Below are positions 538 through 38,332 of a stretch of DNA of 64,000 nucleotides, one piece after another. A program made the position numbers and the translations under genes. The DNA is from Patescibacteria group bacterium (GTDB taxonomy: Bacteria; Patescibacteriota; Microgenomatia; UBA1400; PJMF01), in the NCBI GenBank assembly GCA_016861205.1, contig BOKX01000001.1, positions 72,539-136,538 of the forward strand. The letters are read 5' to 3'. The notes under the pieces are model-generated. The model was not told where the DNA came from. It did no database searches and worked only from the letters and a program-made list of their open reading frames with translations. Position 1 is the stretch's first letter. Each line of letters starts with the position of its first letter.

Positions 538-855
538 ATGAGTGAGTCAACACGAAAGGTAGTTATGGTAGCATCACTTGAACACGAAGTTGAACAGACA
601 TTGGCAGTTGTTGCTGAAACAGGTGCTCTGCCGACAGCAGAGCAAATTGAGGCCCAACTGGACATTATCAAACACAATCGCTTAGATGTGGCTGGCTGGT
701 TACGGAGTATTGCCACTGAACCGAAAGGTGAAGTTGCATTTGCTATGGCAGTGGCCGGTATGGTGGGCGGTGTGGTGTTAACTCCCTTTATTGCCATTCC
801 CGCTGCCATCGAACTAGCTCGCCAGGTCTACCTGGAAACTCGCCGCGACAAGTAA
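538..855 (+). CDS. hypothetical small protein with hydrophobic C-terminus
   Basis: The ORF track gives 349..855. The first 63 codons are low-complexity, so I prefer the internal ATG at about 538 (MSESTRKVV...). No recognisable domain. Confidence 0.3.
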   Translation: MSESTRKVVMVASLEHEVEQTLAVVAETGALPTAEQIEAQLDIIKHNRLDVAGWLRSIATEPKGEVAFAMAVAGMVGGVVLTPFIAIPAAIELARQVYLETRRDK

Positions 856-881
856 GCAAATAAGCCAAGTCTCAAGCAAGG

Positions 882-1502: not shown

Positions 1503-1692
1503 GGGGTCCTTTCGTCTCTTTTACGGCGTAACTTTCCCGAATCTTGACCTAAGAGTACCGAATCAAGACCGAACTCGACAACTAGATCTTTACTACATTA
1601 AAATGCTCAAAATATATCAAATACACCCAGGTGGCGAAGGTAACCAGAAACTGGTATCACCAGGTCCCTTCAGTCTGCTAGAATAGCCATCT

Positions 1693-2343: not shown

Positions 2344-2357
2344 TTCGAGTCGCAACT

Positions 2358-2738
2358 ATGTTAGAAGAACACAATACCTTGCTAAGGGTAGCTGGTCCTG
2401 TCTGGAATGAAGCACAGCAACTCTCGAGTTTAGAACAAAAACTGGAACGAAGTTTTTACATTCTGGCGACAGTATGTGGTGCTGAGGCGGCTATCGCATT
2501 CTTGTACATGGCTGGTGTTGACCTAGCACGAGAGGTGGCAAGAGCTGGCTTACTACTTGTTGCTCAAGCAACTCTTTATCATTGGTGGTCGTTTGGTAAA
2601 TATCTTAGCTCATCAATGAACATTGCTGCCCACATAGCTGGTAGCTCGATTGAAACAACTGAGCCAGATTACCAACCAGAAGCTGATGTCTACTCGTCAC
2701 TCTTGTCCCACGAAGATTTGTTTGGCGAACAGGTTTAG
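2358..2738 (+). CDS. hypothetical protein
   Basis: 126-aa ORF with no recognisable motif; a short gap separates it from dedA. Confidence 0.3.
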   Translation: MLEEHNTLLRVAGPVWNEAQQLSSLEQKLERSFYILATVCGAEAAIAFLYMAGVDLAREVARAGLLLVAQATLYHWWSFGKYLSSSMNIAAHIAGSSIETTEPDYQPEADVYSSLLSHEDLFGEQV

Positions 2739-4426
2739 ATTAACGCCCGGCCAGTCATACTTTCTGGTTTGTTGATGCCCATGATGTGAAGCATGGTTGG
2801 AGCTACGTCGGCCAAGATTCCCGTTGGTAACATGACTGGCTTGTTCATGAACTGTTTGCCAATGATGATGAATGGCACCGGATATGTTGAGTGTTCTGTG
2901 TCAACCTCACCGGTGGTGTTACTGATCATTTCCTCGGCGTTACCATGGTCTGCGGTAATCAAAACGACTCCTCCGCGGTGAAAGACTTCTTTGACGATAC
3001 TACCGACCACCTCATCCAGGATTTCACAGGCCTTGATGCCAGCTTCTAAGTTACCAGTGTGCCCAACCATGTCTGCATTGGCAAAGTTACAGATGATGAC
3101 ATCATAGGTTTCTTCTTGAATACGCTTAATCATCTCGGCCCCAATTTCACGAGCGCTCATCTCAGGAATTTGATCATATGACTTGGCACCTTTCGAAGGC
3201 ACGATGACTCGGTCTTCACCAGGGAACATCAGTTCTTGTTGACCGTTCATGTAGTAGGTGACGAACCGTTCTTTTTCGGTTTCTGCCATGCGCAGTTGCC
3301 GCAGTCCGTGCTCAGCCATGACCTTACAGATTGGGTTTTTGACGAACTGAGGCGGAAATGCCACATCAACTGCCAAGCCTTCTTCATAGCGGGTCATGGT
3401 GGTGAAGTACAAGTTGCTGAGTACTTTGCGGCGGGTAAACGTGCTTCCGCCCACCGACTGTTTCAAGTGAGACTTTTCGTACTTAATCGAGTACGGGTCA
3501 AAACCTTCTTGTTTTATACCTTGCTCAAAGTCTGGCAACACGAATGCTTTTGTGAGCTCACGAGGCCGGTCGATACGGTAGTTAAAGAAAATGACAGCAT
3601 CGTTATCTTGAATGATGCGAGGTTGACCATTGGGATCACAAATTTTGATTGGTTCAATAAACTCATCGGTGATGCCCTGATTGTATTGCTGTTGCATGGC
3701 TTCTGAAGCATTCTGAGTGCAAACCCCCACGCCGTCGGTCAAAGCATCGTACGCTTTTTGGACGCGTTCCCACCGTTTATCACGATCCATCGCATAGTAA
3801 CGACCCATCAAGGATGCAAACTGGCCCACGCCCAATTTTTTACAGTGAGCCTCGATTTGCTGAATATAGTTGATACCTGATGTCGGCGGTGAGTCGCGGC
3901 CATCGGTGAAGCCGTGAATGTACACATTGCTCACGCCCTCTTGTTTACACAAGTTCAACAGTGCATAGAGATGCTCAATATTGGAGTGGACGCCACCTGA
4001 TCCGATTAAACCCATCAGATGCAAGGTGGAGTTGTTTTGTTTAACATGATTAAAGGTGTTCATGAAAGCCGGGTTGGTATTAAAGGAGCCGTCAGCAATG
4101 GCCATGTTAATACGTGGCAAGTCTTGGTACACAATACTGCCGGCACCGATATTGAGATGGCCCGTCTCGGTGTTGCCATCTTCCCCGCGAGGTAAACCAA
4201 CTGCTTCACCGCTGGCAGCTAGCTGGGTGTGTGGAAACGACAGCCAATACTTGGTCATGTTGGGGGTTTTGGCCTGTGCAATAGCATTGCCGGCATTGTT
4301 GGGACCGATGCCCCAACCATCAAGGACCAGTAAAACAGCAGGACGTGGTCCACGATATGGTTGCTGCTGATGCGTGGCATCAAAAGGTAGACTGGTAATA
4401 ATGGGTTGAATCATGGAGTCGGTCAT
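2735..4426 (-). CDS. gpmI: 2,3-bisphosphoglycerate-independent phosphoglycerate mutase
   Basis: 563 aa; N-terminal LVLDGWG metal-binding motif; iPGM-length alkaline-phosphatase-superfamily protein; directly downstream of eno. Confidence 0.9.
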   Translation of the reverse strand: MTDSMIQPIITSLPFDATHQQQPYRGPRPAVLLVLDGWGIGPNNAGNAIAQAKTPNMTKYWLSFPHTQLAASGEAVGLPRGEDGNTETGHLNIGAGSIVYQDLPRINMAIADGSFNTNPAFMNTFNHVKQNNSTLHLMGLIGSGGVHSNIEHLYALLNLCKQEGVSNVYIHGFTDGRDSPPTSGINYIQQIEAHCKKLGVGQFASLMGRYYAMDRDKRWERVQKAYDALTDGVGVCTQNASEAMQQQYNQGITDEFIEPIKICDPNGQPRIIQDNDAVIFFNYRIDRPRELTKAFVLPDFEQGIKQEGFDPYSIKYEKSHLKQSVGGSTFTRRKVLSNLYFTTMTRYEEGLAVDVAFPPQFVKNPICKVMAEHGLRQLRMAETEKERFVTYYMNGQQELMFPGEDRVIVPSKGAKSYDQIPEMSAREIGAEMIKRIQEETYDVIICNFANADMVGHTGNLEAGIKACEILDEVVGSIVKEVFHRGGVVLITADHGNAEEMISNTTGEVDTEHSTYPVPFIIIGKQFMNKPVMLPTGILADVAPTMLHIMGINKPESMTGRALI

Positions 4427-5766
4427 GCGGGCGATTCTACGCTACTTGATGTTGATTCCGGTGCGGTTTGAGGAGCAGCTGTGGCAGCGGCTTGTTGCGA
4501 CATGATTTGCAAATCACTGTAGATCTGAGTCAAACGATTATATTTTTCGATTCGTTCACCTCTATTTGGTGGACCAAACTTAACATAATCACTGCCCATG
4601 CCGACAGCCAGGTCAGCTATTAAGTTATCATTCGTCTCGCCACTGCGGTGCGAGAAAATCACTTGCCACCCCGCGCTGCGGGCCAGCTGAATGACTTCCA
4701 CCGTTTCAGTAATAGTTCCGATCTGGTTCGGCTTGATCAAGATGGCGTTGCAGGTGCGATCTTTAATGGCCTGTTCAGTTTTTGCTTTGTTCGTTGCCAG
4801 CAAACTATCGCCAACGATCAAGGTGGTTTCCCCAAGCTCGGCGGTCAGAGCTTGCCAAGATTTGGCATCATCATCGTCAAAGGGGTCCTCTAGATAGAAA
4901 ACGTGGTACGAGTTGCGCATCGACTTGTAATACTCGATAAGTTCTTGCGATGAAAATGGTTGAGTTTTATCTTTTAGGTGGTACTTACCCGCCTCGAAAA
5001 ACTCGGCAGCAGCTATATCGACGCCAAAAAAGAGGTCCTGAGCTAAGGTGTACGGTGAAGTTTTAATAGTTTCGACCAAAATTTCCAGCGCATCAGTGTT
5101 GTTGTACAGATTCGGGGCGAAGCCACCTTGCAAACCAACTGAGTGAATAGCACCTTTGGCGATCAGCACTTCTTCAAGTTTGTGAAACAGCACCATAGCC
5201 ATGTTGAGTGATGCCAAGTAATCTACGTAGCTGGCGGGGATGATCTGAAACTCTTGAATGTCGAGGTTGTCCGCACCGTGCTCGCCACCGTTGATAAGAC
5301 AGTAAATACAGGTCGGGATACTCAAGCTTTGGGTCAACTGATACTTTTGTTGAACATAGTAGTACACAGGCCAGTTATTCGCAGCGGCTCCGGCTTTCAA
5401 GATAGCTTGTGAGGCAGCCAAGATACTGTTCGCACCCAACTTGGCTTTGTTGGCCGTGCCATCTAGACCGACGAGGAGCTGATCGAGTTCAGCTTGTTGC
5501 GTCGGATCCTTTCCGATTAGCTGGGGCGCGATGACCGTGTTGAGAGCTTCGACCGCGTGTAACACCCCCTGACCCAGCATTCTGCCAGTATCGCCATCTC
5601 GCAACTCGAGAGCTTCGTACTTACCCTTGGAAGTACCAGTTGGCACGCTGGTGGTGACACTTTGTCCAGAATCAAGCCACAGCGTACACTCCACGGTGGG
5701 GATACCGCGGGAGTCAAGAATTTCTCGTCCTTGCACGCTATGTATGGTTGGCATACGGTCGATCAA
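4423..5766 (-). CDS. eno: enolase
   Basis: SVQGREILDSRGIPTVECTLWLDSG N-terminus and full enolase-length C-terminal barrel; the true start is probably MPTIHS at about 5754. Confidence 0.95.
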   Translation of the reverse strand: MIDRMPTIHSVQGREILDSRGIPTVECTLWLDSGQSVTTSVPTGTSKGKYEALELRDGDTGRMLGQGVLHAVEALNTVIAPQLIGKDPTQQAELDQLLVGLDGTANKAKLGANSILAASQAILKAGAAANNWPVYYYVQQKYQLTQSLSIPTCIYCLINGGEHGADNLDIQEFQIIPASYVDYLASLNMAMVLFHKLEEVLIAKGAIHSVGLQGGFAPNLYNNTDALEILVETIKTSPYTLAQDLFFGVDIAAAEFFEAGKYHLKDKTQPFSSQELIEYYKSMRNSYHVFYLEDPFDDDDAKSWQALTAELGETTLIVGDSLLATNKAKTEQAIKDRTCNAILIKPNQIGTITETVEVIQLARSAGWQVIFSHRSGETNDNLIADLAVGMGSDYVKFGPPNRGERIEKYNRLTQIYSDLQIMSQQAAATAAPQTAPESTSSSVESPA

Positions 5767-7981
5767 GCCATTGGGCCTCGGTTACCATAATACTGGCTTT
5801 CAGCTGGCTTGCAAACTGGGGCTGGCACACAAAGCCGGTGGCTCCCAAACTGACACCCCACTCTACCCAACGTTGGTCAAGATGACCAAGCGAGAGATAC
5901 AAGGGTACTTGGTGAGTCTGATGAGAACCTGAAGGTGAAGAGCACTGTTTCAGATACTGCCATGTGGTAGCGAGCAAGTGTTGGGTAGGACCAAGCTCAG
6001 CTTGATAACGTTCAACCAGTTCTGGTTGGTGTGGGTCGATGCCAACCATTTTGGACTGGATCGCCTGAGTATTAAAAATAAACCCATGCATGGCCGGTAA
6101 TTGGCCGGTGAGGATCTCGATTACCAACTGTGGGTTATCGATTTGCAGCCAGGTCGCGTGCAGAACTCGATGGTAGGGTGAGTTGGCTAAGTAGGTTGTT
6201 AACCACTCCAACTCACTCAGCGTTCGGACACCAGTTATAAGCAGTTGCAACTGCGGTTGCTGGTGCCGCCAAGTTTCAAACAGCTCGAGCTCCCACTCGA
6301 GTAGCCACGGATGTTCGCGATAACGAGCAATGCCTCGAAGTCCAAAGTCTGGATTAGGTCCAGGACTTTCTGAGGACGTACCTTGTTCAGCTTGATTGAT
6401 ATCTCGCCAACTCCAGTCACCAAGCTGGTACCAGCTGTGGGCGGGATGCAATCCTGTCACAACGGTGGAGTCTGCAATAACTTTGTTGATTAAGATTGCC
6501 CGACGATCTGGATAGCGAGTGATCGCTGGATCAATACCTTGGCGAGTCAGCCAAGACTGAGACTCCCAGACCACACCTTGTGCCGCAAGTAAAATCTCAG
6601 TGGTTAAACTGGGGGTAACGTGGGTAATGACTTGGCTGGCGGTTGCGATTTGCCGAGTGGTGGTGTGAGTGGTCTCGGTTGCCCAAACTTCACCGCGATC
6701 AGCGCGCATCATAATGACCTCACCGGTTCTGATCCGAGTTGTTGCTTGTCGAGCCTTCATGATGGTGGGAATACCGGCTTGGGTGAGTACTTTCAGGACA
6801 ACTGGACTGGAGATGGCGCTTTCACAGATCAGGCCTGCCGCAGTTTGGAGACCAGAAAGCTGTGTGGGACTGACAGTGTCACAGATTGCAATTTCGCCTG
6901 GACGCAGTTGGTGCCAGTCAGCGCTATGGTTCGTGAGGACCCGAGCTTGGGCTTGAACTTGGCCGCTCACGACCGTTTGGCCGACGGCCACTCGCTTGGC
7001 TTTGGTATCAGCGAGTGGGTGAGCCTCACCCAACGGTTGTAAGTCCCAAATAAACCACTGGCCATTGATCAACCGCCAGTTGACCACTTGGTGCTCAAAC
7101 TGGGTTTGTTTGACACGATGGACAATGTCGCTTAGCTCCAGAATTTGTTCAGTAGTGAGTGGCGAGTGATCCCCCTTGAGGGTCAACGATTGCTCTTTCC
7201 AGCCACCAAGTACCGCGACTAGCTGGTGACTCTGAGGTCGAACAACACGCCTGACTAAAATGTGATTTCGCACATCGACCTCAAAACTCGATTGATCGAT
7301 GGCGCTTTTGACTTCATGGTACTCACCTCGCACCGCGTAGATGAGGACATGTTTAGCATGAGTGAAGGGTTGGTGGGTAAAAGCTACCCCGCTAGCTTGT
7401 GGTGTTTCGCGTAGCTGTAAGAGCCACGGTTGAGCCGGCAGTTGCTGGCCGAGGAGTTGCTGATAATTGCTGAGTAAAGTATCCGCTGTCCAAGTCTGCG
7501 CCCAAGCCAGTTGCAGTGACTCAAGTAGGTTCGCATCGCCTTGAATACACTCAAGCTCAGGTGAGCTGAGTTGTGATCGGGTCCATTCACCGAGTGCAGT
7601 TGGTGTTGGGTAACTTGGTCGCAAACTCACCATCGCTTGATGTCCCCAGTGATGATAAGCAGACCGCACGGCGGCTACTGCTGTTGACGGCCAGTGCCAC
7701 TGGCTCACTACACTTTTGACACGATCAGCCTGATCAGCGCGGTGGGCGGGGTTGTCCCACTCAGTTGATTCTAGAAGTAAGCGCAGCTGCGTAAGCTGAT
7801 CTGGTCCGCCAAGTTGTTGGAACAGTGTGCTGGGGACGACTAGAGTTGGAGTGATGGGAATGCCTTGGTCGGCTAGCGCAGCCAGCTGCTTTGCCTCCCC
7901 TCCGACCACGGCGGTTGGCCAAGCACTCAATTCAGCTAGGGACAGAATAGCCGGTGACTCCACACTTCTATAGTAGCGCAA
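5738..7981 (-). CDS. phosphoenolpyruvate synthase/pyruvate phosphate dikinase-like protein (canonical domain order; swivel His apparently substituted)
   Basis: N-terminal PPDK_N-type ATP-grasp (VVGGEAKQLAALADQGIPITP ... VVNWRLINGQWFIWDLQPL). Central PEP-utilising mobile domain (GEIAICDTVSPTQLSGLQTAAGLICESAISSPVVLKVLTQAGIPTIM), where the usual GG.TSHAAI His appears to be replaced. C-terminal about 300 aa compatible with a PEP-utilising TIM barrel. Confidence 0.55.
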   Translation of the reverse strand: MRYYRSVESPAILSLAELSAWPTAVVGGEAKQLAALADQGIPITPTLVVPSTLFQQLGGPDQLTQLRLLLESTEWDNPAHRADQADRVKSVVSQWHWPSTAVAAVRSAYHHWGHQAMVSLRPSYPTPTALGEWTRSQLSSPELECIQGDANLLESLQLAWAQTWTADTLLSNYQQLLGQQLPAQPWLLQLRETPQASGVAFTHQPFTHAKHVLIYAVRGEYHEVKSAIDQSSFEVDVRNHILVRRVVRPQSHQLVAVLGGWKEQSLTLKGDHSPLTTEQILELSDIVHRVKQTQFEHQVVNWRLINGQWFIWDLQPLGEAHPLADTKAKRVAVGQTVVSGQVQAQARVLTNHSADWHQLRPGEIAICDTVSPTQLSGLQTAAGLICESAISSPVVLKVLTQAGIPTIMKARQATTRIRTGEVIMMRADRGEVWATETTHTTTRQIATASQVITHVTPSLTTEILLAAQGVVWESQSWLTRQGIDPAITRYPDRRAILINKVIADSTVVTGLHPAHSWYQLGDWSWRDINQAEQGTSSESPGPNPDFGLRGIARYREHPWLLEWELELFETWRHQQPQLQLLITGVRTLSELEWLTTYLANSPYHRVLHATWLQIDNPQLVIEILTGQLPAMHGFIFNTQAIQSKMVGIDPHQPELVERYQAELGPTQHLLATTWQYLKQCSSPSGSHQTHQVPLYLSLGHLDQRWVEWGVSLGATGFVCQPQFASQLKASIMVTEAQWLDRPYANHT

Positions 7982-19709: not shown

Positions 19710-20270
19710 CTACTCGGTCAACTCAGCCGCTGGTTGACTCGACAAGTAAGCTTGCCAGGCTGAGTCATGGAGTAGCCCATATAGCTTACCATAGTCAGCC
19801 CAAGAAAATCCCGAGTTGGGATCGGTTTCTTGAGGTAATTGTCGGTACCGTTCTACCAGTTGTCGATATTGGTCGGTGTCTAAGTGGACTACTCCCTGAA
19901 TATCAGAACCGGGTTTGAGATCGGCTGTGGCGACTCGAGCCGCAAAGACGTGGGTAGTAAAAGTAAACTGCCCTTCTGGTGAGTTGAGATTGGCCGAGGT
20001 GGTCAACAGCATCTTGAACCGCTCAGTTGGTAACTGAATACCTGTTTCCTCAGCTAGCTCGCGTTGTGCCGCTTGGAGTGGGGTTTCGCCTTGGTCAATG
20101 CCGCCACCCAGCATACGGTAAATGCCCTCGGGATAGATATCTTTGCGAGCCAGCACAAACTGGCCATGTTCATCGATCAGGAATAACAAAACGTGCTCAC
20201 CTCGCTTCATAACTGGCGGCACGGTGTTGAGGCCAATATCGAGTTGGTGGTGAACAGGTTGGTTGGGCAT
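19710..20270 (-). CDS. NUDIX hydrolase
   Basis: Nudix box GGGIDQGETPLQAAQRELAEETGI. Confidence 0.85.
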   Translation of the reverse strand: MPNQPVHHQLDIGLNTVPPVMKRGEHVLLFLIDEHGQFVLARKDIYPEGIYRMLGGGIDQGETPLQAAQRELAEETGIQLPTERFKMLLTTSANLNSPEGQFTFTTHVFAARVATADLKPGSDIQGVVHLDTDQYRQLVERYRQLPQETDPNSGFSWADYGKLYGLLHDSAWQAYLSSQPAAELTE

Positions 20271-20339
20271 ATGTCAGAAAGATGTCTAGTATTTCAAAAT
20301 CTATCTGGCCTATACTACACGGAACTACCGATTTCCGCC

Positions 20340-20744
20340 ATGGTGGAGTTGTTGACTACTCATCACCACCGTTCACAATCAACGCTCAGTGAGCGGGATT
20401 TAGATCGGTTCACGGCTGAGTTTCACCGAGCTGAACTGAGTGACGTTATGTACCAGCAGCGGTTGCTGAGGTTGCGAGCGGCGGTGGGGTTGTTTCTGTC
20501 GATGGTTACCTTGGTGGGTTTGGTAACTTGGGGGCCAGAGTACTTGGGTGATGAAGTGCTGAGTGCGGTGATGAAGCTCAATCTTGGTTGGCTGTTGGTG
20601 ACCTGTTTTGGCTTGGTTTTGGCAGAAGCTGAGTGCAAAAATCTCGATCTTGAGGTAAAATCCTTTACGGTGGCAGCTAGTGTGCAGCATTCGCGCTCAG
20701 ATGAGTTGTTACCACCGGCGGGTCAAACCAGCCCACCGGACTAA
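20340..20744 (+). CDS. hypothetical two-TM membrane protein
   Basis: The ORF track gives 20193..20744, but its first about 49 codons overlap the divergent NUDIX gene. I prefer the internal Met at about 20340 (MVELLTTHHH...). Confidence 0.3.
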   Translation: MVELLTTHHHRSQSTLSERDLDRFTAEFHRAELSDVMYQQRLLRLRAAVGLFLSMVTLVGLVTWGPEYLGDEVLSAVMKLNLGWLLVTCFGLVLAEAECKNLDLEVKSFTVAASVQHSRSDELLPPAGQTSPPD

Positions 20745-20785
20745 CGTGGGTCGGTCAATTTTGCCGGCGCTCGTCGGAAATACGT

Positions 20786-20859
20786 GGGTCGGTAGCTCAG
20801 TCGGTTAGAGCATCTGCCTCTTAAGCAGAGTGTCGTGGGTTCGAGTCCCACCCGACTCA
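20786..20859 (+). tRNA. tRNA-Lys (anticodon CTT)
   Basis: GGGTCGGTAGCTCAGTCGGTTAGAGCATCTGCCTCTTAAGCAGAGTGTCGTGGGTTCGAGTCCCACCCGACTCA: cloverleaf with anticodon loop CTCTTAA and TPsiC GTTCGAGTC; no encoded CCA. Confidence 0.85.
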
Positions 20860-20865
20860 CAGGTA

Positions 20866-20891
20866 CAAAAAATCCCGTTAGGGATTTTTTT
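20866..20891 (+). terminator. rho-independent terminator after tRNA-Lys
   Basis: AAAAAATCCCgttaGGGATTTTTTT, a hairpin followed by a T-run. Confidence 0.6.
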
Positions 20892-21011
20892 GTGCCTGTT
20901 GGGATTGGGTACTGGAGTCAAATGCGTGGTTCGTTCTGTGCAGTTTAGTATTTTTACCTTAAAAAACCTGCACAGCGCGCAGCACCGCTGAAAATCTAGT
21001 CAGGCGAGCAT

Positions 21012-21028
21012 GTCCCACCCGACTCACA
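21012..21028 (+). repeat. 17-bp exact direct repeat of the tRNA-Lys 3' end (GTCCCACCCGACTCACA; first copy 20845..20861)
   Basis: Seen directly in the sequence; att-site-like duplication of the tRNA 3' end. Confidence 0.7.
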
Positions 21029-21052
21029 AAACATTGAAAACTGATTGATCAA

Positions 21053-21532
21053 CTAAGTTATCTTCTTTAGTTCGAGAGTTTCTAGTTTATAGCCAAGTTT
21101 TTGGTAAAAAGATTGTGAGGGATTGTTTGCTAACACAGCAACTCTTATGGTGGAGGTGTTTTTTTCTTTGGCAAAATGCTCTGCATTTTTCATCAATTTG
21201 GCTGCCACTCCCTGACCACGGTATTTTTTGTTAACCACTAAGTCAGAAATATATAAATGACCCTGTTCGTTTAATATGTCCTTTTCCAGGTAATAGGCAA
21301 TGAAACCCACTACAATTCCCTCCATCTCTGCTATCACTACGTCACCATTTTTTTCTTTGATGTCATTATTTAGCTCTTGCCAATATGAATCGAATATTAG
21401 CTCGCCGCTTGCTCTATCAGGTAGCAACCCCTTTTCATACGATTGGAGTTCAATAAAAAGAATTTTCAGTGAAGGCAAGTCTTTTGCTTGAAAAGACCTA
21501 ATGATTAACTTCATGTATGAATTATATCCCAC
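21053..21532 (-). CDS. GNAT family N-acetyltransferase
   Basis: VVNKKYRGQGVAAKLMKNAEHFAKE is the acetyl-CoA-binding motif A (R/Q-x-x-G-x-G/A); 159 aa. Confidence 0.85.
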   Translation of the reverse strand: MGYNSYMKLIIRSFQAKDLPSLKILFIELQSYEKGLLPDRASGELIFDSYWQELNNDIKEKNGDVVIAEMEGIVVGFIAYYLEKDILNEQGHLYISDLVVNKKYRGQGVAAKLMKNAEHFAKEKNTSTIRVAVLANNPSQSFYQKLGYKLETLELKKIT

Positions 21533-21608
21533 TTGTTAATCCACTAATTTTTAAACCGAGAAACATGGGGTTTCATTAAAGCACTTGTAATATCAAGGTC
21601 GTAGTGAC

Positions 21609-22097
21609 CTAGAAGTTTTTCTCTGAAATTTCCGATTTAACTACTTTTAAGTCGTTGCTGAAGGTGAAAGTACCTTCTAAACTATGACCATTTAAAATAG
21701 CAGGCAGCCAAAACTGGGCATCGTCCCACATCTTCAGCAATGGGAGTTTTTGTTTGTCTATCCATTCAGGTCTTATTTCGTCAGTTTCAACTGGTTTGCC
21801 ATCCCATTTTTCACACAAAAATACATGAACTTGCTGACTCCAGACGGGTTTTTGGGGGAATAAAAATGTTAAGTTGCCAACTTTCTTAAGGACAGGTTTA
21901 GTGACTTTAGTTTCTTCACTAAGCTCGCGGATCGCAGCTTCAAGCTCTGATTCATCAGCTTCAATTTTTCCGCCGATTCCCAGGTAATTTCCAGTTCCAA
22001 AACCAGTTTTCTTGTATCCCAATAAAACTTCACTTTCTTTAATTAAAAAAGCAACGGTTCGTTGACTGAGTTGGCTCATATTGGTCGATTGTAACAA
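21609..22097 (-). CDS. NUDIX hydrolase (MutT/MTH1-like 8-oxo-dGTPase family)
   Basis: Nudix box GGKIEADESELEAAIRELSEETKV and C-terminal WDDAQFWLP. Confidence 0.8.
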   Translation of the reverse strand: MLQSTNMSQLSQRTVAFLIKESEVLLGYKKTGFGTGNYLGIGGKIEADESELEAAIRELSEETKVTKPVLKKVGNLTFLFPQKPVWSQQVHVFLCEKWDGKPVETDEIRPEWIDKQKLPLLKMWDDAQFWLPAILNGHSLEGTFTFSNDLKVVKSEISEKNF

Positions 22098-22118
22098 AGT
22101 CGGTTAGTAATACATTTT

Positions 22119-22676
22119 TCACACGAAAGCTGCTGGGAACCTACTCCGAGCCCACAGCAACAATGCCACGGTGTCCGATGCATGAAGTTCACCTGATGCT
22201 AGCCACTCATCCAATTTCTCGATTGGGACCAACACGAGCTCGATGTCTTCAGTTTTTTCCAACTCCTGCTGTTCGGTAATACTCACATCTTTAACCAAAA
22301 AACCAAACACCCGGACTGTACTTTTACTCGGTTCTGTCCAGAGTTCAATCAAGCCGATTAAGTCACTCTCGCTTACCTCGATGCCGGTTTCTTCTTTGAG
22401 TTCCCTGACAGCCGTTTGTTGCGGGGTGTGGCCAGCCTCAATTCGGCCGGCGGGAAACTCTAGGCAGACCTCACCCACACCGTGTTTGTACTGTCGGACC
22501 AGCACCACTTCTCGGTTCTTGGTGATGGGTACAATCATCGACACGTTTGCCAAGTTTGACTTGTAGTAGTCGATCACACTACCGTCTGGCAATCTGACCT
22601 CGTCTTGGACCACTGGGAACCACGGACTTGGGGAGACGTCGTGTTGATTGATAATGTGCCATTTTTTGTTCACCAT
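22119..22676 (-). CDS. NUDIX hydrolase (ADP-ribose pyrophosphatase-like)
   Basis: Nudix box AGRIEAGHTPQQTAVRELKEETGI. Confidence 0.8.
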   Translation of the reverse strand: MVNKKWHIINQHDVSPSPWFPVVQDEVRLPDGSVIDYYKSNLANVSMIVPITKNREVVLVRQYKHGVGEVCLEFPAGRIEAGHTPQQTAVRELKEETGIEVSESDLIGLIELWTEPSKSTVRVFGFLVKDVSITEQQELEKTEDIELVLVPIEKLDEWLASGELHASDTVALLLWARSRFPAAFV

Positions 22677-22681
22677 GTTTG

Positions 22682-23413
22682 TTACTCGCCCTTTCTCAAA
22701 ACCAACCGGTAATTGGTGGCTGTAAAATCTCGACCCAGCTTGTGCGCTTTTTTGTTAATTTTTTGGAGTTCTAGAATTTCAAACTGGCTATAAAACTCAC
22801 GAAGTTCTTGTTCATCATAATTTTTTTGAAATTTGCCATTTTGCGGCCAAATGCTGCTGTTTTTCTCGCCGCCGGGTGACTGTTTCATCATTTCAGCTTC
22901 CATTTCATCTTCGGCAGCGACTACACTGACCATGGCTATACCCCCGGGTCGTAATGTTCGGTACAGCTCACGACAATACACTTCTCTACCGAGTTTCGTT
23001 TCAATATCGATGGAGGCAAAACTATCGATAGCGATGTCGAAAAAATTATTTTCAAATGGCCACTTTTGGTCCATGGCGTGGCAACTGGTATGTATGTTTT
23101 CTGCTAAACCTCTGCTAATAGTCTCGTTGGAGATAAAGGCAATCGCCTCTGGGATGTAATCCATGGCGAAAACCTCGTATCCCTGTTCGGCCATAAAAAA
23201 AGTGTTTCTACCTTTTCCAGCCCCGATATCTATAACTTTTCCCGAGAGCAAACCCATTTTTTTAAGTAAATTATGAAACTGAACCACTAAACCTGAGGGT
23301 TCCAGCTGTTTGGTGCTGCTCATTTCGCTGGGCAAGGCTTGAGCAGTCTTATGTTCATCCGCCCAAATTTGCTGTTGTTTTCTCATTGAACCGCATTGTA
23401 ATGCCCTACTCAT
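22682..23413 (-). CDS. class I SAM-dependent methyltransferase
   Basis: Motif I VIDIGAGKGRNTFFMAEQG; motif post-II LYRTLRPGGIAMV. Confidence 0.8.
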   Translation of the reverse strand: MSRALQCGSMRKQQQIWADEHKTAQALPSEMSSTKQLEPSGLVVQFHNLLKKMGLLSGKVIDIGAGKGRNTFFMAEQGYEVFAMDYIPEAIAFISNETISRGLAENIHTSCHAMDQKWPFENNFFDIAIDSFASIDIETKLGREVYCRELYRTLRPGGIAMVSVVAAEDEMEAEMMKQSPGGEKNSSIWPQNGKFQKNYDEQELREFYSQFEILELQKINKKAHKLGRDFTATNYRLVLRKGE

Positions 23414-23506: not shown

Positions 23507-24550
23507 ATGAAGTCCACCAACCCCCGTTCCTTTTTCATCGACGAGTCACTCCTCAAGTCCCTCAAGTTAGTCGCCGTGGCTTACTCAGAAGTTCGTCGGG
23601 AAGATTTTGCGACTGAAGGTGCTTACATCGCTGAAGTGGAAGTGGAAGAGCGGGCTGAAAGTGTCATCAAAGTTATCTCCGACCTCGGTATGACTGTCAA
23701 AGGGTATGTGGCCGATCAGTACTTCTTCACCAATATTTTGGTGGATAAACCAGATATTGTTTTGAATTTGGTGGACACCGTCCGAGGCCGTGACAGTTTG
23801 CAGCCGGCTATCCCGGGAGCTTTGGAACTCTCCAACATTCAGTACACTGGTGCCGGTTTGCGCGGCTTGGTGGTTGGTAATGACCGGCACTTGTTTAAGC
23901 AACTGCTGATAGCTCATGACATTCCCACCCCTCGTTACAAGTTCATTCGCGACCTGCGGTCCAAAGTGCCTGAAGATTTGGGCACTCCCTTGATCGTCAA
24001 ACTCAACGAAAGTGGCGGCAGTGTCGGCATCGATAACAAAGCCGTCAAAGACACGTTGGCTGCGGCCACCACCAAAGTGCAAAAAATGATCGAAACCTAC
24101 AAGATTCCGGTTATCGTCGAGCAATTTATCGGTGGGCCGGAAATCACCGCCGTGATTTATGATGATGGTCAGAAGCGACATGTCTTTTTGGGGCAGAAAA
24201 TTTTCAAAGTCAAACCAGATGGTAAGCACGACTTCACCAGCCTCGAAAGTTACGACGACGCGCATGCCTACGAGTACACAGAGCCGACGGTAGAGGTCGC
24301 TGATAAGATCAACCCACTCGTTACCCGCGCGTTTGAAGTCTTGGGGTATCGAGATTACGCTAAGTTCGATATTCGTTGGGACGAAGAGAACGGGATCCCC
24401 TACTTTATTGACTGTAATCCCAACACGGCGCTCGGACCAGACAAGGGTTTGCCGATGACTGAAGTACTAGCCATGCATGGGGTCAGTTTTGAGATCTTAC
24501 TCAAGAGTATGCTCAGCAAGCATGCTAAACTCCTGCAGCGTAAAGAGTAA
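23507..24550 (+). CDS. ATP-grasp ligase of the D-alanine--D-alanine ligase family
   Basis: PLIVKLNESGGSVGIDNKAV, VIVEQFIGGPEITAVIYDDG and AKFDIRWDEENGIPYFIDCNPNTALGPD resemble the Ddl C-terminal (Dala_Dala_lig_C) motifs. The N-terminus lacks the canonical Ddl GG.S.EhEVS motif. Confidence 0.6.
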   Translation: MKSTNPRSFFIDESLLKSLKLVAVAYSEVRREDFATEGAYIAEVEVEERAESVIKVISDLGMTVKGYVADQYFFTNILVDKPDIVLNLVDTVRGRDSLQPAIPGALELSNIQYTGAGLRGLVVGNDRHLFKQLLIAHDIPTPRYKFIRDLRSKVPEDLGTPLIVKLNESGGSVGIDNKAVKDTLAAATTKVQKMIETYKIPVIVEQFIGGPEITAVIYDDGQKRHVFLGQKIFKVKPDGKHDFTSLESYDDAHAYEYTEPTVEVADKINPLVTRAFEVLGYRDYAKFDIRWDEENGIPYFIDCNPNTALGPDKGLPMTEVLAMHGVSFEILLKSMLSKHAKLLQRKE

Positions 24551-24559
24551 AATATCTAT

Positions 24560-25168
24560 ATGACAGCCACTATTCGCCAAATTACTCAAATTAGTGAACA
24601 CCACTGTGGACCAGCCGTGATTGAGATGTTGCTTGATGCCCAAGGAGTGCAGGTGTCCCAAGCTGCCATAACTAGAGCCGCCGGTGTCACAGCCACCATT
24701 CAAACCCATGGCACGCGTGTTGACCAACTGGCCAAAGCGGTGAGTCAGGTCGCGCCCCACTTGTTGTTTTGGTACAAGTATCGCGCCTCAATTGATGACA
24801 TCAAACAAGTGTTGAATCGAGGTTATGGTGTGGCTGTGGAGTGGCAAGGGATTTTTTACGAAACCTTGGAAGAACAGTTGCGGCACGGTGATCAGGATGC
24901 CGGTCACTATAGTATTGTTTCACACTATGATGATCAGACCGACCAGCTCGTCATCATTGATCCGTACCTGGATTTTGTTGATCGTGACCGAATTATTTCA
25001 GCAGCTGACTTTCTGGAACGCTGGTGGGATGACAACGAAGTGACTGATGAAGACACCGGTCGCTCGCGCTTTCAGCGAGACGAGCAGTTGCTGTTTTTTG
25101 TGACGCCTGAGACCGAAAACTTTGCAGTTGAGGATGGCTTCAAACAGTACGTGTCACTGGATGAGTAG
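24560..25168 (+). CDS. standalone peptidase C39-like (papain-fold Cys/His) domain protein
   Basis: SEHHCGPAVIEMLLDAQG matches the C39 catalytic Cys motif (xCGxAxLxM); GHYSIVSHYDD...VIIDP matches the His motif (HfvVl...DP); 202 aa, soluble. Confidence 0.5.
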   Translation: MTATIRQITQISEHHCGPAVIEMLLDAQGVQVSQAAITRAAGVTATIQTHGTRVDQLAKAVSQVAPHLLFWYKYRASIDDIKQVLNRGYGVAVEWQGIFYETLEEQLRHGDQDAGHYSIVSHYDDQTDQLVIIDPYLDFVDRDRIISAADFLERWWDDNEVTDEDTGRSRFQRDEQLLFFVTPETENFAVEDGFKQYVSLDE

Positions 25169-25239: not shown

Positions 25240-25944
25240 TTACTGCGTCATAAGCTCATTTACACTAGCTTCAGCAAGTATTTTCATGCTATCAAACACT
25301 CTATCAACTGGTCGTGGTGGCATGGATAACTGTAGATCAGTGCAAGCCAACACAACAGTATCAGCTCCAGCTTTTTTGACTCGATCAATAACACCCATAA
25401 GTAAGGAAGTATCTTCAGTGTTATTTTTCCATGATAGCGTTCGTTGAATAATACCTTCGATGATCAATTGATCTTGCTCGTGTGGGTAGATTGCAATCAG
25501 ATTTTGTTTTTGACAAGCGATATCATAGATGCCTGCTGTTTTTGTTACTCTTGTTCCTAAAATGCCAACTACGTGAGCCTGTTCCCTTTTCACTTTTTTG
25601 GCAACTTCTTCAGTAATGCTCAGCATAGGGACACTAATCGCAGATCGAACCGCGTCAATATGGACATGAGCTGTGTTACAAGGTAAGACAACTAACGTAG
25701 CTCCACCAACTTCCAAATTTTGGGCGGCACAACTAAGGAAATCACGAAGCTCATCAACTCGACTGACAGCTTGTGTCAGTGATTGTTCAAGAGCAAAAGG
25801 TGACTGAGTATTCTCAAGCATTAATGGAATGTGACTTGTTGCGCCCGAGGCGTGCCACAGGCGTTCTGTAGCAACGTAGAATTGAGCTGCTGTATCAGTT
25901 CCTAATCCACCAATAACACCTAATTTTTTCTGCCGATTTTTCAT
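25240..25944 (-). CDS. Asp/Glu/hydantoin racemase family protein (aspartate racemase-like)
   Basis: GVIGGLGTDTAAQFY, VVLPCNTAH and VVLACTDL are the two catalytic Cys regions of PLP-independent racemases. Confidence 0.8.
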   Translation of the reverse strand: MKNRQKKLGVIGGLGTDTAAQFYVATERLWHASGATSHIPLMLENTQSPFALEQSLTQAVSRVDELRDFLSCAAQNLEVGGATLVVLPCNTAHVHIDAVRSAISVPMLSITEEVAKKVKREQAHVVGILGTRVTKTAGIYDIACQKQNLIAIYPHEQDQLIIEGIIQRTLSWKNNTEDTSLLMGVIDRVKKAGADTVVLACTDLQLSMPPRPVDRVFDSMKILAEASVNELMTQ

Positions 25945-26169: not shown

Positions 26170-26784
26170 TCACCCAGCATTTTTTACTACCCGATCTTTG
26201 AGCAAAAAGTCGCCAAACAACTCGCGCCCAAACGCTCTAATCCAAGGGTCGTCGTCTTCGAGGGCTGCCGCGATGGCTTGTTTCGTCAATGGATTTTGGT
26301 ATGGTAGCAACCTGCACATCGCGTCCAGTGCCGCCTCGCGAATTTCTGACTGGAGCTGTGGATTGCTGAACATAGTCCAAAGATACTCGTGTGCATCGTG
26401 ATTTTCCCGAAACCATTCCTTATGGAGCCTGAAAAGCCCTGGCAAAGTTTGGTGGACTTCAGGGAACTTCACTGGGTCCCAATCACGATAGTGCGTGAAA
26501 ACTTCAGCAGGACTGAGTACTCTCGACAAACCGAGCGCGATAGTACTAGCTGCGCCCAGCCGAATCTCCTCTTCTTGGTCGCAGAGCAGTTGGTCGAGGA
26601 TAGTTTGAGCCTGTGCAAAGTGGAGAATGTTATGAAAAAAAACCTGTAAAGCTGCGAGTCGCAGTGGCAACTCTTGGCTGGTTAACAGGTTGACAGTAAT
26701 AGCCTCTGCTGCCACCAATGGACTCGGTTCCGTTTGAAAGCAGCGGTAGATGCGGCGGAGTTCAGAGTCATGAGGTGTGTTCAT
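26170..26784 (-). CDS. HEAT/PBS-lyase-like repeat protein
   Basis: Repeated helical units with LRLAALQVF, IRLGAASTIALG and IREAALDAMCRLL patterns. Confidence 0.4.
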   Translation of the reverse strand: MNTPHDSELRRIYRCFQTEPSPLVAAEAITVNLLTSQELPLRLAALQVFFHNILHFAQAQTILDQLLCDQEEEIRLGAASTIALGLSRVLSPAEVFTHYRDWDPVKFPEVHQTLPGLFRLHKEWFRENHDAHEYLWTMFSNPQLQSEIREAALDAMCRLLPYQNPLTKQAIAAALEDDDPWIRAFGRELFGDFLLKDRVVKNAG

Positions 26785-28342: not shown

Positions 28343-30853
28343 TTAGGTAGTAGTGATCGGCCGAGCCTGGAAGAGATAGACAGTATCCCCTACAATTCCC
28401 CACTCAAGATCAGCTGGTTTTTTTTGAAAAGCATCTTGCATCGTTTGCTCAATAAACAAACCAAGAGTAGCTAACTTCTGTAAATGTTGAGAAGTTAGCA
28501 GCGCCTGACTCGTGCCGGGAATTATCTGACGAATGTTACCCGAGTGGGCACTATCTCTATCGAGGATAAAGCGAGTTGGCTTGACGTTTCCGCTGGTCAC
28601 TCCTCGATTTTGACCGTTAACGGCTTCAATGATCATACTGTTATGTCCAAGTCCGTTCGAGGGTGTCGGGTTTTTTGTGAACATAACACCAGACAACGTT
28701 GGATTCACTTGTTCTTGGATGATAATGCTGCCTTCGTATGGTGAACGTCCATTCTTGCCCCGAGAGTTAATGAAAATATATGACCGAAGTTGTTCAATAA
28801 TGTTACTGATGGTTAGATCAGGAATACTATCAAAGTAACCAGCCGCGGCAGACCCATTCGTGTCTTCCAATCTGCAGCTACTTCTGATCATGATTTCTGC
28901 TAAATCAGTCCAATTCAAACCACGGCATGATTGATAGATCATTTGAATAAGTTCATCGCCAAATGCGTAGTTTTTAACTGATTTATGGCGACGAGCTTTT
29001 TGGAGTTCATCAGCCACTAAATCTGGAGGCAAGAAGAATGCCGGTGTGATTTTATAGTTTCCAACATCTTGGTGCTGATGTAAAAGAGCTAAGTTAAATG
29101 CTTTGACACCAAGGTCAGAAGCGGTTAATCCAAACGTGTCTGTTACATTGGGAAATGGAATTACCTTGTTAATATTTTGGGCAGTTTCCAAACGAGATAC
29201 CCAACCCTCATCGGCGTTGACTTTGACGCGGTCGCCTGTTGAGAGCGCTTTGAGTAAGCCAGAAATGCCGACAATAGTGGGAATTTCTTGTTCCCGAGCC
29301 GTAATAGCAGCATGACAAGTGATGCCGCCTGTTTCAGTCAGAATAGCACCCACTTGGTATTTTTTTTGCTGGCGCCATTCATTTATGGCATACATTAGGT
29401 CGGGATCAGTAGAACCACTAACAATTACGACGATGGTATTTGGTGGAACGATAGCTTTTTTGAGATCATCAGGCCTAAAGGCAACAATCACTGTTCCCTC
29501 AGTTTGTCCTGGCCAAACCTGTGATCCAGTTAAGTATCTGGGATCAATCTCGGCTTCGTAACTAGCGCTAATACGTGCCAGGATATCAGCCACCAAATCA
29601 GGATTATCAATCACGCCGTGTGTTAGGTCTTTGATGTAGTACAAAAAATTTTGAGTATGCCGTGTCTGAAGCTTTGTGTGAATGTCATGCTGAAGCTCTG
29701 GCTGGGAACTATCAAGTAAAGCACTCAGCTCGGGGGGAATAGCGCCTCTCACGGCAGCTTCAGGTAAGTTATGACGACGAGCAATTTCGTACAGTAGCTT
29801 GTCCAGAAACATGAAATTAACAAGTTGTGCATTGCGTCGATACATTTTGGCTAGACCAATTTGGGGATAGAGCTTAAACAGGTCTTGCCAATTTTTGTCG
29901 ATTTGATAGTGATCAAATGCAGCCTCTCGTTCAGACTCATTGGAGATAAGCCGGTCTTTTTTGCGGGCGATAACTTGGTGGGGAGCATTGTTAATTAGAC
30001 TACGAATTTTATCTATCACTTCGGTTTCCGTCATTGCTTGCCTGTTTGCATAACCATGATAGATGGTGCTGCCATAGCGATGAACAAAATCTTTAATTCT
30101 TTCGCGGTAGCTTGGTTGTAGGTAAAGCCAGACAAATTTAAGTGGTTGATCTAAAAGATCTGCTTGTCTCTGACCAATGGTCAGAGTTGGATCATCGATG
30201 ATATCGGCCGCCAATTGGAGTAGAGTTAGTTCAGCCTGATCCAAAACTGAGGATTCAGTGGGTGCAATGAGAGTCGAGAAAGCTCTATTGAGCTCTTTTG
30301 GTGATGGGGCTGATAACGCTTGTTTTGTCATGGCAAACTGTAGGTGATTTTTCAAAAGTTTGCTAAACAGTTCGTAGCCGCGATCCAGTGCTTCGGGAAT
30401 ACGAGCATAGTTGTAAACAGCTAGATGCAACTGAGTGTGTGTGTCAAAAAGTGCTTTTAGCTCTGAATCTGATAATTCAGAAAATGAAGTTTTTTTTAAA
30501 TGTTGACGCGAGAAATCTTCTAACTGATCACAAGTGGCATAGATTTGTTGCAAAACCTCAGTCATCCAACTGGGGTTTTCTCGTAGTTTAGCGATAATGT
30601 GATCGGCAACTTTTTTAACGTCAGCTTCTGGTGCCCAGTACATTTCATTAAATTGTGAAAAGTGAGAGATTAGGGTGGTGTAAGCCAGGTCGATTTCACC
30701 AAGGGGTGGCAGTATCTGACTGGATGTACATAAATAGTACCAGGCAATATTGACATCATTATCAAGATTGGGGTTGCCATCTGTCCAACGGCCGGTGTTG
30801 AGCGAGCCTTCTAAAGGCGTTAGAGCATTATATTCAAAGGTGTTTAGCGACAT
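28343..30853 (-). CDS. PEP-utilising enzyme with permuted domain order (unknown N-terminal 450 aa, then His-swivel domain, then PPDK_N-type ATP-grasp)
   Basis: TETGGITCHAAITAREQEIPTIVG is the canonical mobile-domain His motif at about residue 500. The C-terminus GVMFTKNPTPSNG...MIIEAVNGQNRGVTSGNVKPTRFILDR...DLEWGIVGDTVYLFQARPIT matches the nucleotide-binding PPDK_N domain. Confidence 0.6.
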   Translation of the reverse strand: MSLNTFEYNALTPLEGSLNTGRWTDGNPNLDNDVNIAWYYLCTSSQILPPLGEIDLAYTTLISHFSQFNEMYWAPEADVKKVADHIIAKLRENPSWMTEVLQQIYATCDQLEDFSRQHLKKTSFSELSDSELKALFDTHTQLHLAVYNYARIPEALDRGYELFSKLLKNHLQFAMTKQALSAPSPKELNRAFSTLIAPTESSVLDQAELTLLQLAADIIDDPTLTIGQRQADLLDQPLKFVWLYLQPSYRERIKDFVHRYGSTIYHGYANRQAMTETEVIDKIRSLINNAPHQVIARKKDRLISNESEREAAFDHYQIDKNWQDLFKLYPQIGLAKMYRRNAQLVNFMFLDKLLYEIARRHNLPEAAVRGAIPPELSALLDSSQPELQHDIHTKLQTRHTQNFLYYIKDLTHGVIDNPDLVADILARISASYEAEIDPRYLTGSQVWPGQTEGTVIVAFRPDDLKKAIVPPNTIVVIVSGSTDPDLMYAINEWRQQKKYQVGAILTETGGITCHAAITAREQEIPTIVGISGLLKALSTGDRVKVNADEGWVSRLETAQNINKVIPFPNVTDTFGLTASDLGVKAFNLALLHQHQDVGNYKITPAFFLPPDLVADELQKARRHKSVKNYAFGDELIQMIYQSCRGLNWTDLAEIMIRSSCRLEDTNGSAAAGYFDSIPDLTISNIIEQLRSYIFINSRGKNGRSPYEGSIIIQEQVNPTLSGVMFTKNPTPSNGLGHNSMIIEAVNGQNRGVTSGNVKPTRFILDRDSAHSGNIRQIIPGTSQALLTSQHLQKLATLGLFIEQTMQDAFQKKPADLEWGIVGDTVYLFQARPITTT

Positions 30854-37804: not shown

Positions 37805-38332
37805 TTACTCTTCAATGGTGAACTCGATGAGTTCATTGCCTTTTTCGTACACAGCCGAGTATGACACCACGTGGTCATTGTCGCTAAAAATATGGTCGGC
37901 TGCCTGTTTGATCTCAGCAAGCAAATTATCGAGTTTGACAATCTCAGCTGGAGTCAACCATCGTAGCTCACCATCGGCCGGGTCTTGTATGACCTCGCCA
38001 CTGGCCCAGTCTGCCATCACAAAATTGAAAAAAACCTCCTGATCGAGGTCTTTGAGATAGGCGTTGCCAACCACTTTGACTTTTAAATTTTTGATTTCCA
38101 AGCCAGTCTCTTCACGAATTTCTCGCCGAGCGGCCGCAAACAAACCTTCGTTGAACTCCCGTTTGCCACCTGGAGCCATCCAGACACCCGGCATGATTCT
38201 TTTGTCGGGGTTGCGGTGAAGCATCAGGTACTTACCATCTTTTTTAACAAAACACTCGAGTGTGACAATGATGTGGCGATCAGACATGGGGTCATTATAC
38301 ACATTGGCAGTGGTGACAACTTCTGATTGCAT
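37805..38332 (-). CDS. NUDIX hydrolase
   Basis: Nudix box GGKREFNEGLFAAARREIREETGL. Confidence 0.85.
   Translation of the reverse strand: MQSEVVTTANVYNDPMSDRHIIVTLECFVKKDGKYLMLHRNPDKRIMPGVWMAPGGKREFNEGLFAAARREIREETGLEIKNLKVKVVGNAYLKDLDQEVFFNFVMADWASGEVIQDPADGELRWLTPAEIVKLDNLLAEIKQAADHIFSDNDHVVSYSAVYEKGNELIEFTIEE

Follow-up and report, generated by a model that had tools for sequence, protein, structure and literature searches.

The closest described counterparts of the gene analyzed here are dikinases that combine an ATP-grasp domain, a phosphohistidine swivel, and a domain for the second substrate. The rifampin phosphotransferase RPH-Lm (PDB 5FBS/5FBT/5FBU and 5HV1-3; PMC4844700) has these domains in the order ATP-grasp, substrate domain, swivel and contains no TIM barrel. 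HpeHI, PpsAB (phenylphosphate synthase), and CreHI are two-chain enzymes in which the substrate domain and swivel share a polypeptide and the ATP-grasp domain is separate (PMC12167813). PigC, RedH, and HapC have the same domain set in the conventional order and perform an ATP-dependent condensation in a pigment pathway that is missing from the DNA described below. In phosphoenolpyruvate (PEP) synthase and pyruvate phosphate dikinase (PPDK), the third domain is a TIM barrel. The DNA examined here, a stretch of 64,000 nucleotides (64 kb; the window) from a Patescibacteria group bacterium (contig BOKX01000001.1, positions 72,539 to 136,538; assembly GCA_016861205.1), contains a gene for an 836-amino-acid protein with the same three types of domain as RPH-Lm, arranged in one chain as substrate domain (residues 1 to 440), swivel (residues 441 to 560), and ATP-grasp (residues 575 to 836). 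As judged from sequence comparisons and structural models, this protein is a circular permutation of the small-molecule dikinase class that includes RPH, PigC, and HpeHI. Below, loci of relatives carry L numbers and relative proteins carry P numbers.

Domain content and order

The dikinase gene (Table 1) is an uninterrupted open reading frame (ORF), whose product recurs without any difference on at least eight independent contigs from different runs and several samples, one of them a 1.15-Mb NCBI contig. Pfam places the PEP-utilizers swivel at residues 475 to 550 (57 bits; cutoff, 23.1) and the PPDK_N ATP-grasp domain at residues 624 to 835 (65 bits; cutoff, 27), the latter covering profile positions 70 to 311 of 328, and local domain hidden Markov models (HMMs) gave the wider boundaries stated above for the swivel (SW) and the ATP-grasp domain (GR). 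The two are separated by a linker of about 18 residues (557 to 574), within which residues 560 to 564 have pLDDT values below 50 in the full-length AlphaFold model. The C-terminal end, RPITTT, corresponds to the RPH domain boundary at residues 311 to 315. Residues 1 to 440, referred to here as the N-domain (N), have no Pfam match and are covered by no NCBIfam model, and Pfam detects no PEP-utilizers_C TIM barrel in the 836-amino-acid protein.

An earlier reading of this DNA, made from the sequence alone (the sequence-only reading), had noted a swivel with an intact catalytic histidine lying N terminal to a PPDK_N-type domain, a long unassigned region ahead of both, and an order that fits neither PEP synthase/PPDK nor RPH. 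Domain mapping bears out all three points: the carrier histidine is His514, both peptides that had been singled out are present (ETGGITCHAAITAREQ, residues 507 to 522, and DLEWGIVGDTVYLFQARPIT, residues 815 to 834), and about 440 residues without a Pfam match precede the swivel. The protein has neither the linear order of the RPH class nor a two-chain arrangement of the HpeHI type. The sequence-only reading had allowed for a C-terminal region that was not PPDK_N or an N-terminal region that was an ordinary TIM barrel; neither is the case, as PPDK_N scores more than twice its cutoff and the N-domain has a predicted RPH-like fold. The order is, however, not unrelated to that of RPH, being a cyclic rotation of the ATP-grasp, substrate domain, and swivel of RPH.

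Membership in a named enzyme family is not supported by any curated model. NCBIfam models for PEP synthase, PigC/RedH, Rph, and PRK08296 matched only the swivel and ATP-grasp stretches. The top names were those of PEP synthase models, at 94 to 98 bits against cutoffs of 598 to 883, and the PEP synthase/PPDK models (TIGR01418, NF005057, and TIGR01828) are missed widely (94.3 bits versus 739.75; 96.6 versus 598). The PigC/RedH models scored about 70 bits against cutoffs of 1,300 to 1,350, and the rifamycin-inactivating phosphotransferase equivalogs (NF041857/NF000283) scored 63.8 bits versus 999 and 28.6 versus 1,700. With every curated cutoff missed by this much, the protein is an orthologue of none of RPH, HpeHI/PpsAB/CreHI, or PigC/RedH, and nothing points to a rifamycin as its substrate.

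Identity of the N-terminal domain

The full-length AlphaFold model (pLDDT, 88.7; pTM, 0.72) has RPH-Lm as its top PDB matches by Foldseek, with alignments of about 600 columns compared to about 320 for the ATP-grasp domain alone. Four independent lines, drawn from sequence and from the models, link the N-domain itself to the substrate-binding (RIF-binding) domain of RPH as a distant homologue. The model of residues 1 to 440 alone (pLDDT, 92.1; pTM, 0.90) matched six RPH-Lm entries as the only PDB hits with a probability of 1.00 (E values of 3e-4 to 3e-3 over 437 to 463 columns; TMq, 0.38 to 0.45; identity, 10 to 12%), the next best reaching 0.35 or less. The authors of the RPH structures found no structural homologues of the RIF-binding domain (PMC4844700), and the exclusive match of the N-domain to RPH is therefore informative. 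In profile comparisons with RPH-Lm, the family aligns in rotated order: profile positions 348 to 518 correspond to RPH 703 to 866, 530 to 589 to RPH 8 to 67, and 596 to 766 to RPH 111 to 315. RPH 703 to 866 comprises the end of the RIF-binding domain and the swivel, so that the alignment reaches back from the swivel into RIF-binding residues 703 to 766. The Rph and PigC NCBIfam matches of relatives similarly reach beyond the N-terminal edge of the swivel and into the N-domain, by about 150 residues in the PigC match of P0013.

The fourth line comes from P0151, a relative with the conventional order, in which Pfam finds PPDK_N at residues 15 to 319 and the swivel at residues 741 to 811. Its central region aligns to the N-domain with an hhalign probability of 100% (E value, 7.8e-49; 373 columns), and the N-domain alignment used for this comparison was built from permuted and split members only. 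P0151 is not a chimera: local domain HMMs also find the N-domain in the central position in P0281 (59% identical to P0151), P0299, and P0359, relatives of the same length within a very large CPR/DPANN family (see below). Where other dikinases have a TIM barrel, the window protein thus has a helical second-substrate domain that is a homologue of the RIF-binding domain, and the domain homologies to RPH follow one another in rotated order, which is what marks the protein as a circularly permuted RPH. We regard it as a member of a known enzyme class with a new domain arrangement and a distinct substrate-domain subfamily. The sequence-only reading had proposed a phosphotransferase acting on a substrate bound by a novel N-terminal domain; a phosphotransferase with a small-molecule acceptor is, by homology with RPH, still what the enzyme most likely is, and the part of that proposal that fails is the novelty of the domain, for which structure prediction returned a match to RPH only.

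Spread of the permuted order

A word-indexed homology search recovered only three relatives over their full length, at 99%, 40%, and 30% identity; each of them shares the domain order, but their small number gave a false impression of extreme rarity. An exhaustive HMMER search with a profile of the N-terminal 440 residues instead found 896 representatives of 50%-identity clusters at an E value of 1e-3 or below, 96 of them at 1e-30 or below. The best 150 representatives were classified with the local domain HMMs. The permuted form, N-SW-GR, accounts for 57 of them, and an equal number (57) are split N-SW forms of about 500 to 530 amino acids with no ATP-grasp domain; the rest include one GR-N-SW protein (P0151) and a few tandem N-SW repeats. 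About 20 of the 57 N-SW-GR proteins are long forms of about 1,000 to 1,540 amino acids with extra flanking regions. The permuted fusion is also seen in relatives of the window protein at 40%, 44%, and about 28% identity. A search for homologues with the same order and for their genomic context, as recommended in the sequence-only reading, has thus yielded both a sizeable family and, in three lineages, a TobZ-like neighboring gene (see below).

Joining the chains of HpeHI, PpsAB, or CreHI would give exactly the order of the window protein, and the family itself includes split N-SW forms. The ATP-grasp domain of the window protein has HpeI (9GOJ) as a structural match. The window protein differs from the HpeHI type in being a single chain with no aromatic-catabolism genes around it and, going by the published descriptions of HpeH, PpsA, and CreH, in its substrate domain, which belongs to another subfamily and is about 100 amino acids shorter than that of the 71-kDa HpeH. 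A simple fusion of adjacent split genes would be a plausible origin given the HpeHI/PpsAB precedent; it finds no support at L028, L029, and L036 to L039, where the split relatives have no adjoining ATP-grasp gene. Among the more distant split forms, those at L037 (positions 103 to 3250), L036, L038, and L039 are flanked by genes for a 303-amino-acid protein and a 223-amino-acid multipass membrane protein, the former sharing the motif EIEYWSRL and overlapping the start of the N-SW gene.

The recurrence of the permuted form indicates that the three-domain swivelling-histidine machine of the RPH class tolerates a rotated order and that this is a recurrent natural architecture, not a one-off. It also provides a basis for reannotating many metagenomic proteins, a large share of them from the candidate phyla radiation (CPR) and DPANN, that are currently called PEP synthase or PEP/pyruvate-binding proteins; without a pyruvate domain, these proteins almost certainly do not make PEP. 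Among P0282 to P0399, from CPR and DPANN organisms, there were very many proteins of 1,000 to 1,400 amino acids with one ATP-grasp domain followed by two or three swivels. Some of these also matched the local N-domain model, giving GR-(N-SW)n arrangements and one N-SW-N-SW-GR, and some had matches to Epimerase_2 (PF02350) or the AcnX swivel (PF01989). All of them go by the name of PEP synthase or PEP/pyruvate-binding protein; P0151, the one member scanned with Pfam, has no pyruvate-binding domain.

Catalytic residues and proposed mechanism

The nucleotide-contacting residues of the RPH ATP-grasp domain and the carrier histidine have counterparts in the window protein. In profile-to-RPH alignments, RPH Lys22, Arg117, Thr136, Glu297, and His825 correspond to K584, R657, S676, E817, and H514, respectively, and the swivel aligns to RPH 810 to 866, including His825. 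Mutagenesis of RPH showed that Lys22, Arg117, and Thr136 are needed for rifampin resistance, whereas the Glu297Ala variant kept activity (PMC4844700). Across 35 full-length permuted family members, K584 and R657 are invariant and E817 is nearly so (at least 90%); the swivel residues G510, H514, R520, and E521 are likewise invariant. The protein therefore has both a PPDK_N domain with its nucleotide-contact residues and a swivel with the T/S-x-x-G-G-x-x-x-H motif that has been described for HpeH (PMC12167813). In the N-domain, Y147, Y265, G267, K336, R339, F347, D351, E375, and R398 are invariant in the same 35 sequences, and the nearly invariant R340 and Q343 lie with K336 and R339 on a basic helix. 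A correspondence of K336/R339/R340 to RPH Arg666/Glu667/Lys670, as extrapolated from the sequence alignment, is suggestive.

We infer the chemistry and the location of the acceptor site by homology with RPH. The C-terminal ATP-grasp domain would bind Mg-ATP through K584, R657, S676, and E817, and His514 would attack the beta-phosphate to give a pyrophospho-histidine and AMP, after which the gamma-phosphate would be hydrolyzed to Pi. The swivel would then carry the remaining phosphate to the helical N-domain, where a small molecule, probably bound close to the basic helix with K336, R339, R340, and Q343, would accept it, for a predicted net reaction of ATP + X + H2O to AMP + Pi + X-P. Through the permutation, the swivel acquires a tether at each end, an arrangement known from PPDK and PEP synthase and in contrast to the single linker of RPH. 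The swivel of PEP synthase and PPDK is likewise central, and these enzymes share with the window protein an ATP-grasp domain and swivelling-histidine dikinase chemistry; the flanking order is reversed, with the ATP-grasp domain C terminal here.

A TobZ-like partner in three lineages

The dikinase gene is followed on the same strand by a gene for a divergent homologue of the TobZ/NodU/NovN/GdmN carbamoyltransferases. The dikinase and TobZ-like genes are paired in three lineages, represented by the window and L001 to L004, by L005 and L009, and by L007 and L035, and are cotranscribed in this subclade. In the 40%-identity lineage (L005 and L009), the two genes overlap. L007/L035 is a Patescibacteria metagenome-assembled genome, in which the dikinase has 43.9% identity over residues 326 to 835 and P0157 is the partner. 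Among the neighboring genes, only this carbamoyltransferase-like gene travels with the dikinase clade. Conservation of the genes for the HEAT-repeat, C39-like, Ddl-like, and racemase proteins does not extend past near-identical strains, and some of them vary even among these; no HEAT homologue was detected in L005 or L035, where a different gene follows the partner. At L035 (positions 3184 to 6219), the pair is followed by an overlapping gene for a 1,011-amino-acid protein with weak matches to Glyco_tran_28_C and EryCIII-like glycosyltransferases, which may point to the tailoring of small molecules or glycans in this lineage.

The partner has a Carbam_trans_C domain at residues 346 to 511 (110 bits) that passes its cutoff, whereas Carbam_trans_N stays below its cutoff (19.7 bits versus 24), as does NodU (62.9 bits versus 1,000). 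It aligns to TobZ residues 284 to 572 only, starting from partner residue 219, leaving the first 220 or so residues unaligned. The GPRALGNR motif of the YrdC-like domain is kept. The motifs of canonical carbamoyltransferases are replaced: HHxAH has become xHxAE, DGxGE is gone together with the aspartate of QPAAxD, and in place of KxRExxRPFAP there is KxxKPxKxxAIA, so that neither the Kae1-like metal site (HxxxH, D, D) nor the KxRExxRPFAP motif of O-carbamoyltransferases is present and carbamoyl transfer by the partner is doubtful. The same replacements are common to the three dikinase-linked partners compared (the window, L005, and L035), and their conservation argues for a changed function and not for decay. 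The partner may have the carbamoyltransferase fold but another activity, or a role that is noncatalytic; presumably, it acts on or presents the same metabolite as the dikinase.

Cap15/HD cassettes and fusions in distant relatives

Most relatives at 28 to 30% identity are encoded in a different context, a translationally coupled cassette of an HD protein (about 215 amino acids), a Cap15-type two-transmembrane (2TM) effector (about 205 amino acids), and the dikinase, which is of the N-SW-GR or N-SW form. The cassette was seen at 15 loci, about 10 of them nonredundant (L006, L010, L012, L015, L016, L017, L020, L022, L025, L026, L028/29, and L032 to L034; for example, L032:4728-8325 and L028:4706-7581). 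The effector matches Pfam Cap15_CD_rec at 63 to 73 bits and the PADLOC "2TM effector" models for CBASS at E values of about 1e-33. At L032 to L034, the cassette is carried by an integrative element that also has integrase, relaxase, and RelB/ParE genes, and a faint integrase match was found near another cassette lineage. In long forms of the dikinase (P0010, P0016, P0020, and similar proteins at L011, L014, L018/19, and L030/31), an HD domain equivalent to the cassette HD protein is fused to the enzyme; Pfam finds PNP_UDP_1 at the N terminus and HD at the C terminus of P0010 and P0016, and the PNP part of the long forms matches the PADLOC "PN-superfamily effector" and PDC-M60C models. Taken together at the sequence level, the cassettes and the PNP/HD fusions look like effector swapping in a conflict system.

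This more surprising material, the association with Cap15, HD, and PNP, belongs to the relatives and not to the window gene. Local HMMs built from the cassette proteins found no HD or Cap15_CD_rec cassette gene in the 64-kb window, no integrase or other mobility gene lies near the dikinase gene, and PADLOC gave no defense-system match for the dikinase, the partner, or their neighbors; it also gave no match for the four cassette-type dikinases scanned. The literature search turned up no paper that describes either the permuted form or the HD/Cap15/dikinase cassette. One paper (PMC9503650) proved irrelevant, as its "swivel" is that of a DNA ligase, and MarK was set aside as a relative because it is an unrelated UPF0261 kinase. 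The TobZ-like pairing and the HD/Cap15-type cassettes offer concrete starting points for finding new chemistry of small-molecule phosphorylation and perhaps also a new kind of immune signaling.

Alternative explanations

We consider the product of the window gene likely to be a single-chain small-molecule dikinase that belongs to the RPH/PigC/HpeHI class and has the order substrate domain, swivel, ATP-grasp. Several observations weigh against this. The N-domain profile had no match among PDB sequences, hhalign gave no match between the N-domain and the central domains of the conventional enzymes P0004 to P0006, all curated NCBIfam dikinase models score far below their cutoffs, and RPH Arg666/Glu667/Lys670 extrapolate to positions about 5 residues away from K336/R339/R340, on the same helix. 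Split forms often have no ATP-grasp gene nearby, so some members of the family may take no phosphate from ATP, and the partner lacks the canonical carbamoyltransferase motifs, which consequently do not fix its role. The first of these, together with the lack of any Pfam or NCBIfam model for residues 1 to 440 and the low identity to RPH, would suit a new class of phosphotransferase whose N-terminal 450 residues are a novel substrate domain unrelated to PEP-utilizing or RPH-type enzymes. That explanation is very unlikely given that the N-domain on its own matches only RPH in the fold search, that the same domain occupies the center of conventional-order enzymes, and that the profile and NCBIfam alignments extend into the RIF-binding domain. 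An ordinary PEP synthase or PPDK of central metabolism is suggested by the best NCBIfam names and by the source annotations of relatives ("phosphoenolpyruvate synthase" and "PEP/pyruvate-binding domain-containing protein"); with scores so far below the cutoffs and covering the swivel and ATP-grasp only, no TIM barrel, and an RPH-like third domain, it has almost no likelihood. We give equally little credence to an artifact or a decayed gene, that is, misjoined N-SW and ATP-grasp genes or an inactive pseudoenzyme: split N-SW forms equal the fused ones in number and linker residues 560 to 564 are modeled with low confidence, but the ORF is uninterrupted and recurs identically across contigs from different runs, the fusion is found again at 40%, 44%, and about 28% identity, and K584, R657, E817, and His514 are invariant or nearly so across the 35 sequences.

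A role in nucleotide signaling or in an anti-phage type of conflict deserves more room. The enzyme would make or modify a phosphorylated, nucleotide-like signal, and the TobZ-like protein would take the place of the effector and the HD partner. TobZ/YrdC-type domains bind nucleotides. The cassettes of relatives with their matches to CBASS models, the integrative element in one lineage and faint integrase match in another, the long forms with PNP and HD fused to the dikinase in a manner resembling effector swapping, and the invariance of the N-domain core residues across both clades all favor such a role. For the window gene, it is nevertheless unlikely, since the window has no Cap15-like or HD cassette gene, no mobility marker lies near the gene, neither dikinase nor partner has a PADLOC match, and no supporting literature was found. 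The broader proposal that the permuted dikinase family as a whole consists of signal-making or signal-editing enzymes of unrecognized nucleotide-based conflict systems, with the window subclade as a variant, seems to us slightly less likely again. If it were true, a swivelling-histidine dikinase and not a CD-NTase-type cyclase would control Cap15-type pore or PNP nucleosidase effectors, the HD hydrolase would serve as the reset, and in the window subclade a remodeled TobZ/YrdC-like nucleotide-binding protein would replace both the HD protein and the effector.

Other genes in the window

Table 1. Features of the dikinase gene and of other genes in the 64-kb window (positions are those of the window)
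Feature	Position	Strand	Basis or remark
Dikinase gene, 836 aa, ATG start	28343..30853	-	Stop codon 28343-28345; ORF call and Pfam
N-domain, aa 1-440, helical, predicted substrate binding	29534..30853	-	Distant homologue of RPH RIF-binding domain
Phosphohistidine swivel, aa 441-560, motif T506-x-x-G-G-x-x-x-H514	29174..29533	-	Pfam and local domain HMM
Codon of catalytic phosphate-carrying His514	29312..29314	-	Corresponds to RPH His825; alignment and invariance
Linker, aa 561-574, swivel C terminus to ATP-grasp N terminus	29132..29173	-	Junction made by the permutation
ATP-grasp nucleotide-binding domain, aa 575-836	28346..29131	-	Pfam PPDK_N and local domain HMM
TobZ/NodU-like carbamoyltransferase homologue, 513 aa	26798..28339	-	Starts 3 nt past dikinase stop
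HEAT-repeat protein	26170..26784	-	Third gene of tight same-strand run, 13-nt gap
Small acidic ORF, 151 aa	30895-31350	-	No family match
Small acidic ORF, 100 aa	31408-31710	-	No family match
Asp/Glu/hydantoin racemase	25240-25944	-	Between HEAT and C39-like genes
D-Ala-D-Ala-ligase-like (Ddl-like) ATP-grasp gene, then, after 9 nt, C39-like papain-fold peptidase gene	23507-25168	+
NUDIX hydrolase genes	21609-22097, 22119-22676		Pfam confirmed
Apparent further NUDIX genes	19710-20270, 37805-38332		Inferred from synteny with same-length NUDIX-annotated genes in L001
SAM methyltransferase	22682-23413
GNAT acetyltransferase	21053-21532
tRNA-Lys(CTT)	20786-20860
Two adjacent giant ORFs, 1,779 and 1,578 aa	53094-58433, 58605-63341	-	No Pfam match at E <= 1e-3

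Between the dikinase gene and a divergent alpha/beta-hydrolase gene lie the two small acidic ORFs, which vary among strains. Both are called as genes on L040, and on L041 the end of the contig truncates one ORF; neither occurs at the 99%-identical loci L001 to L004, where the gap is about 120 bp. Their products have no Pfam match and no similarity to the UP or CAP (effector) proteins of the cassettes, and whether they form part of the dikinase unit is uncertain.

Farther along, the racemase gene is absent from L001 to L003, which are otherwise syntenic. The flank of the window from position 19710 to 23413 is unusually rich in NUDIX genes, and its gene content is unlike that of L001. The Ddl-like and C39-like genes, which are kept together in close strains, are transcribed convergently with the dikinase operon.

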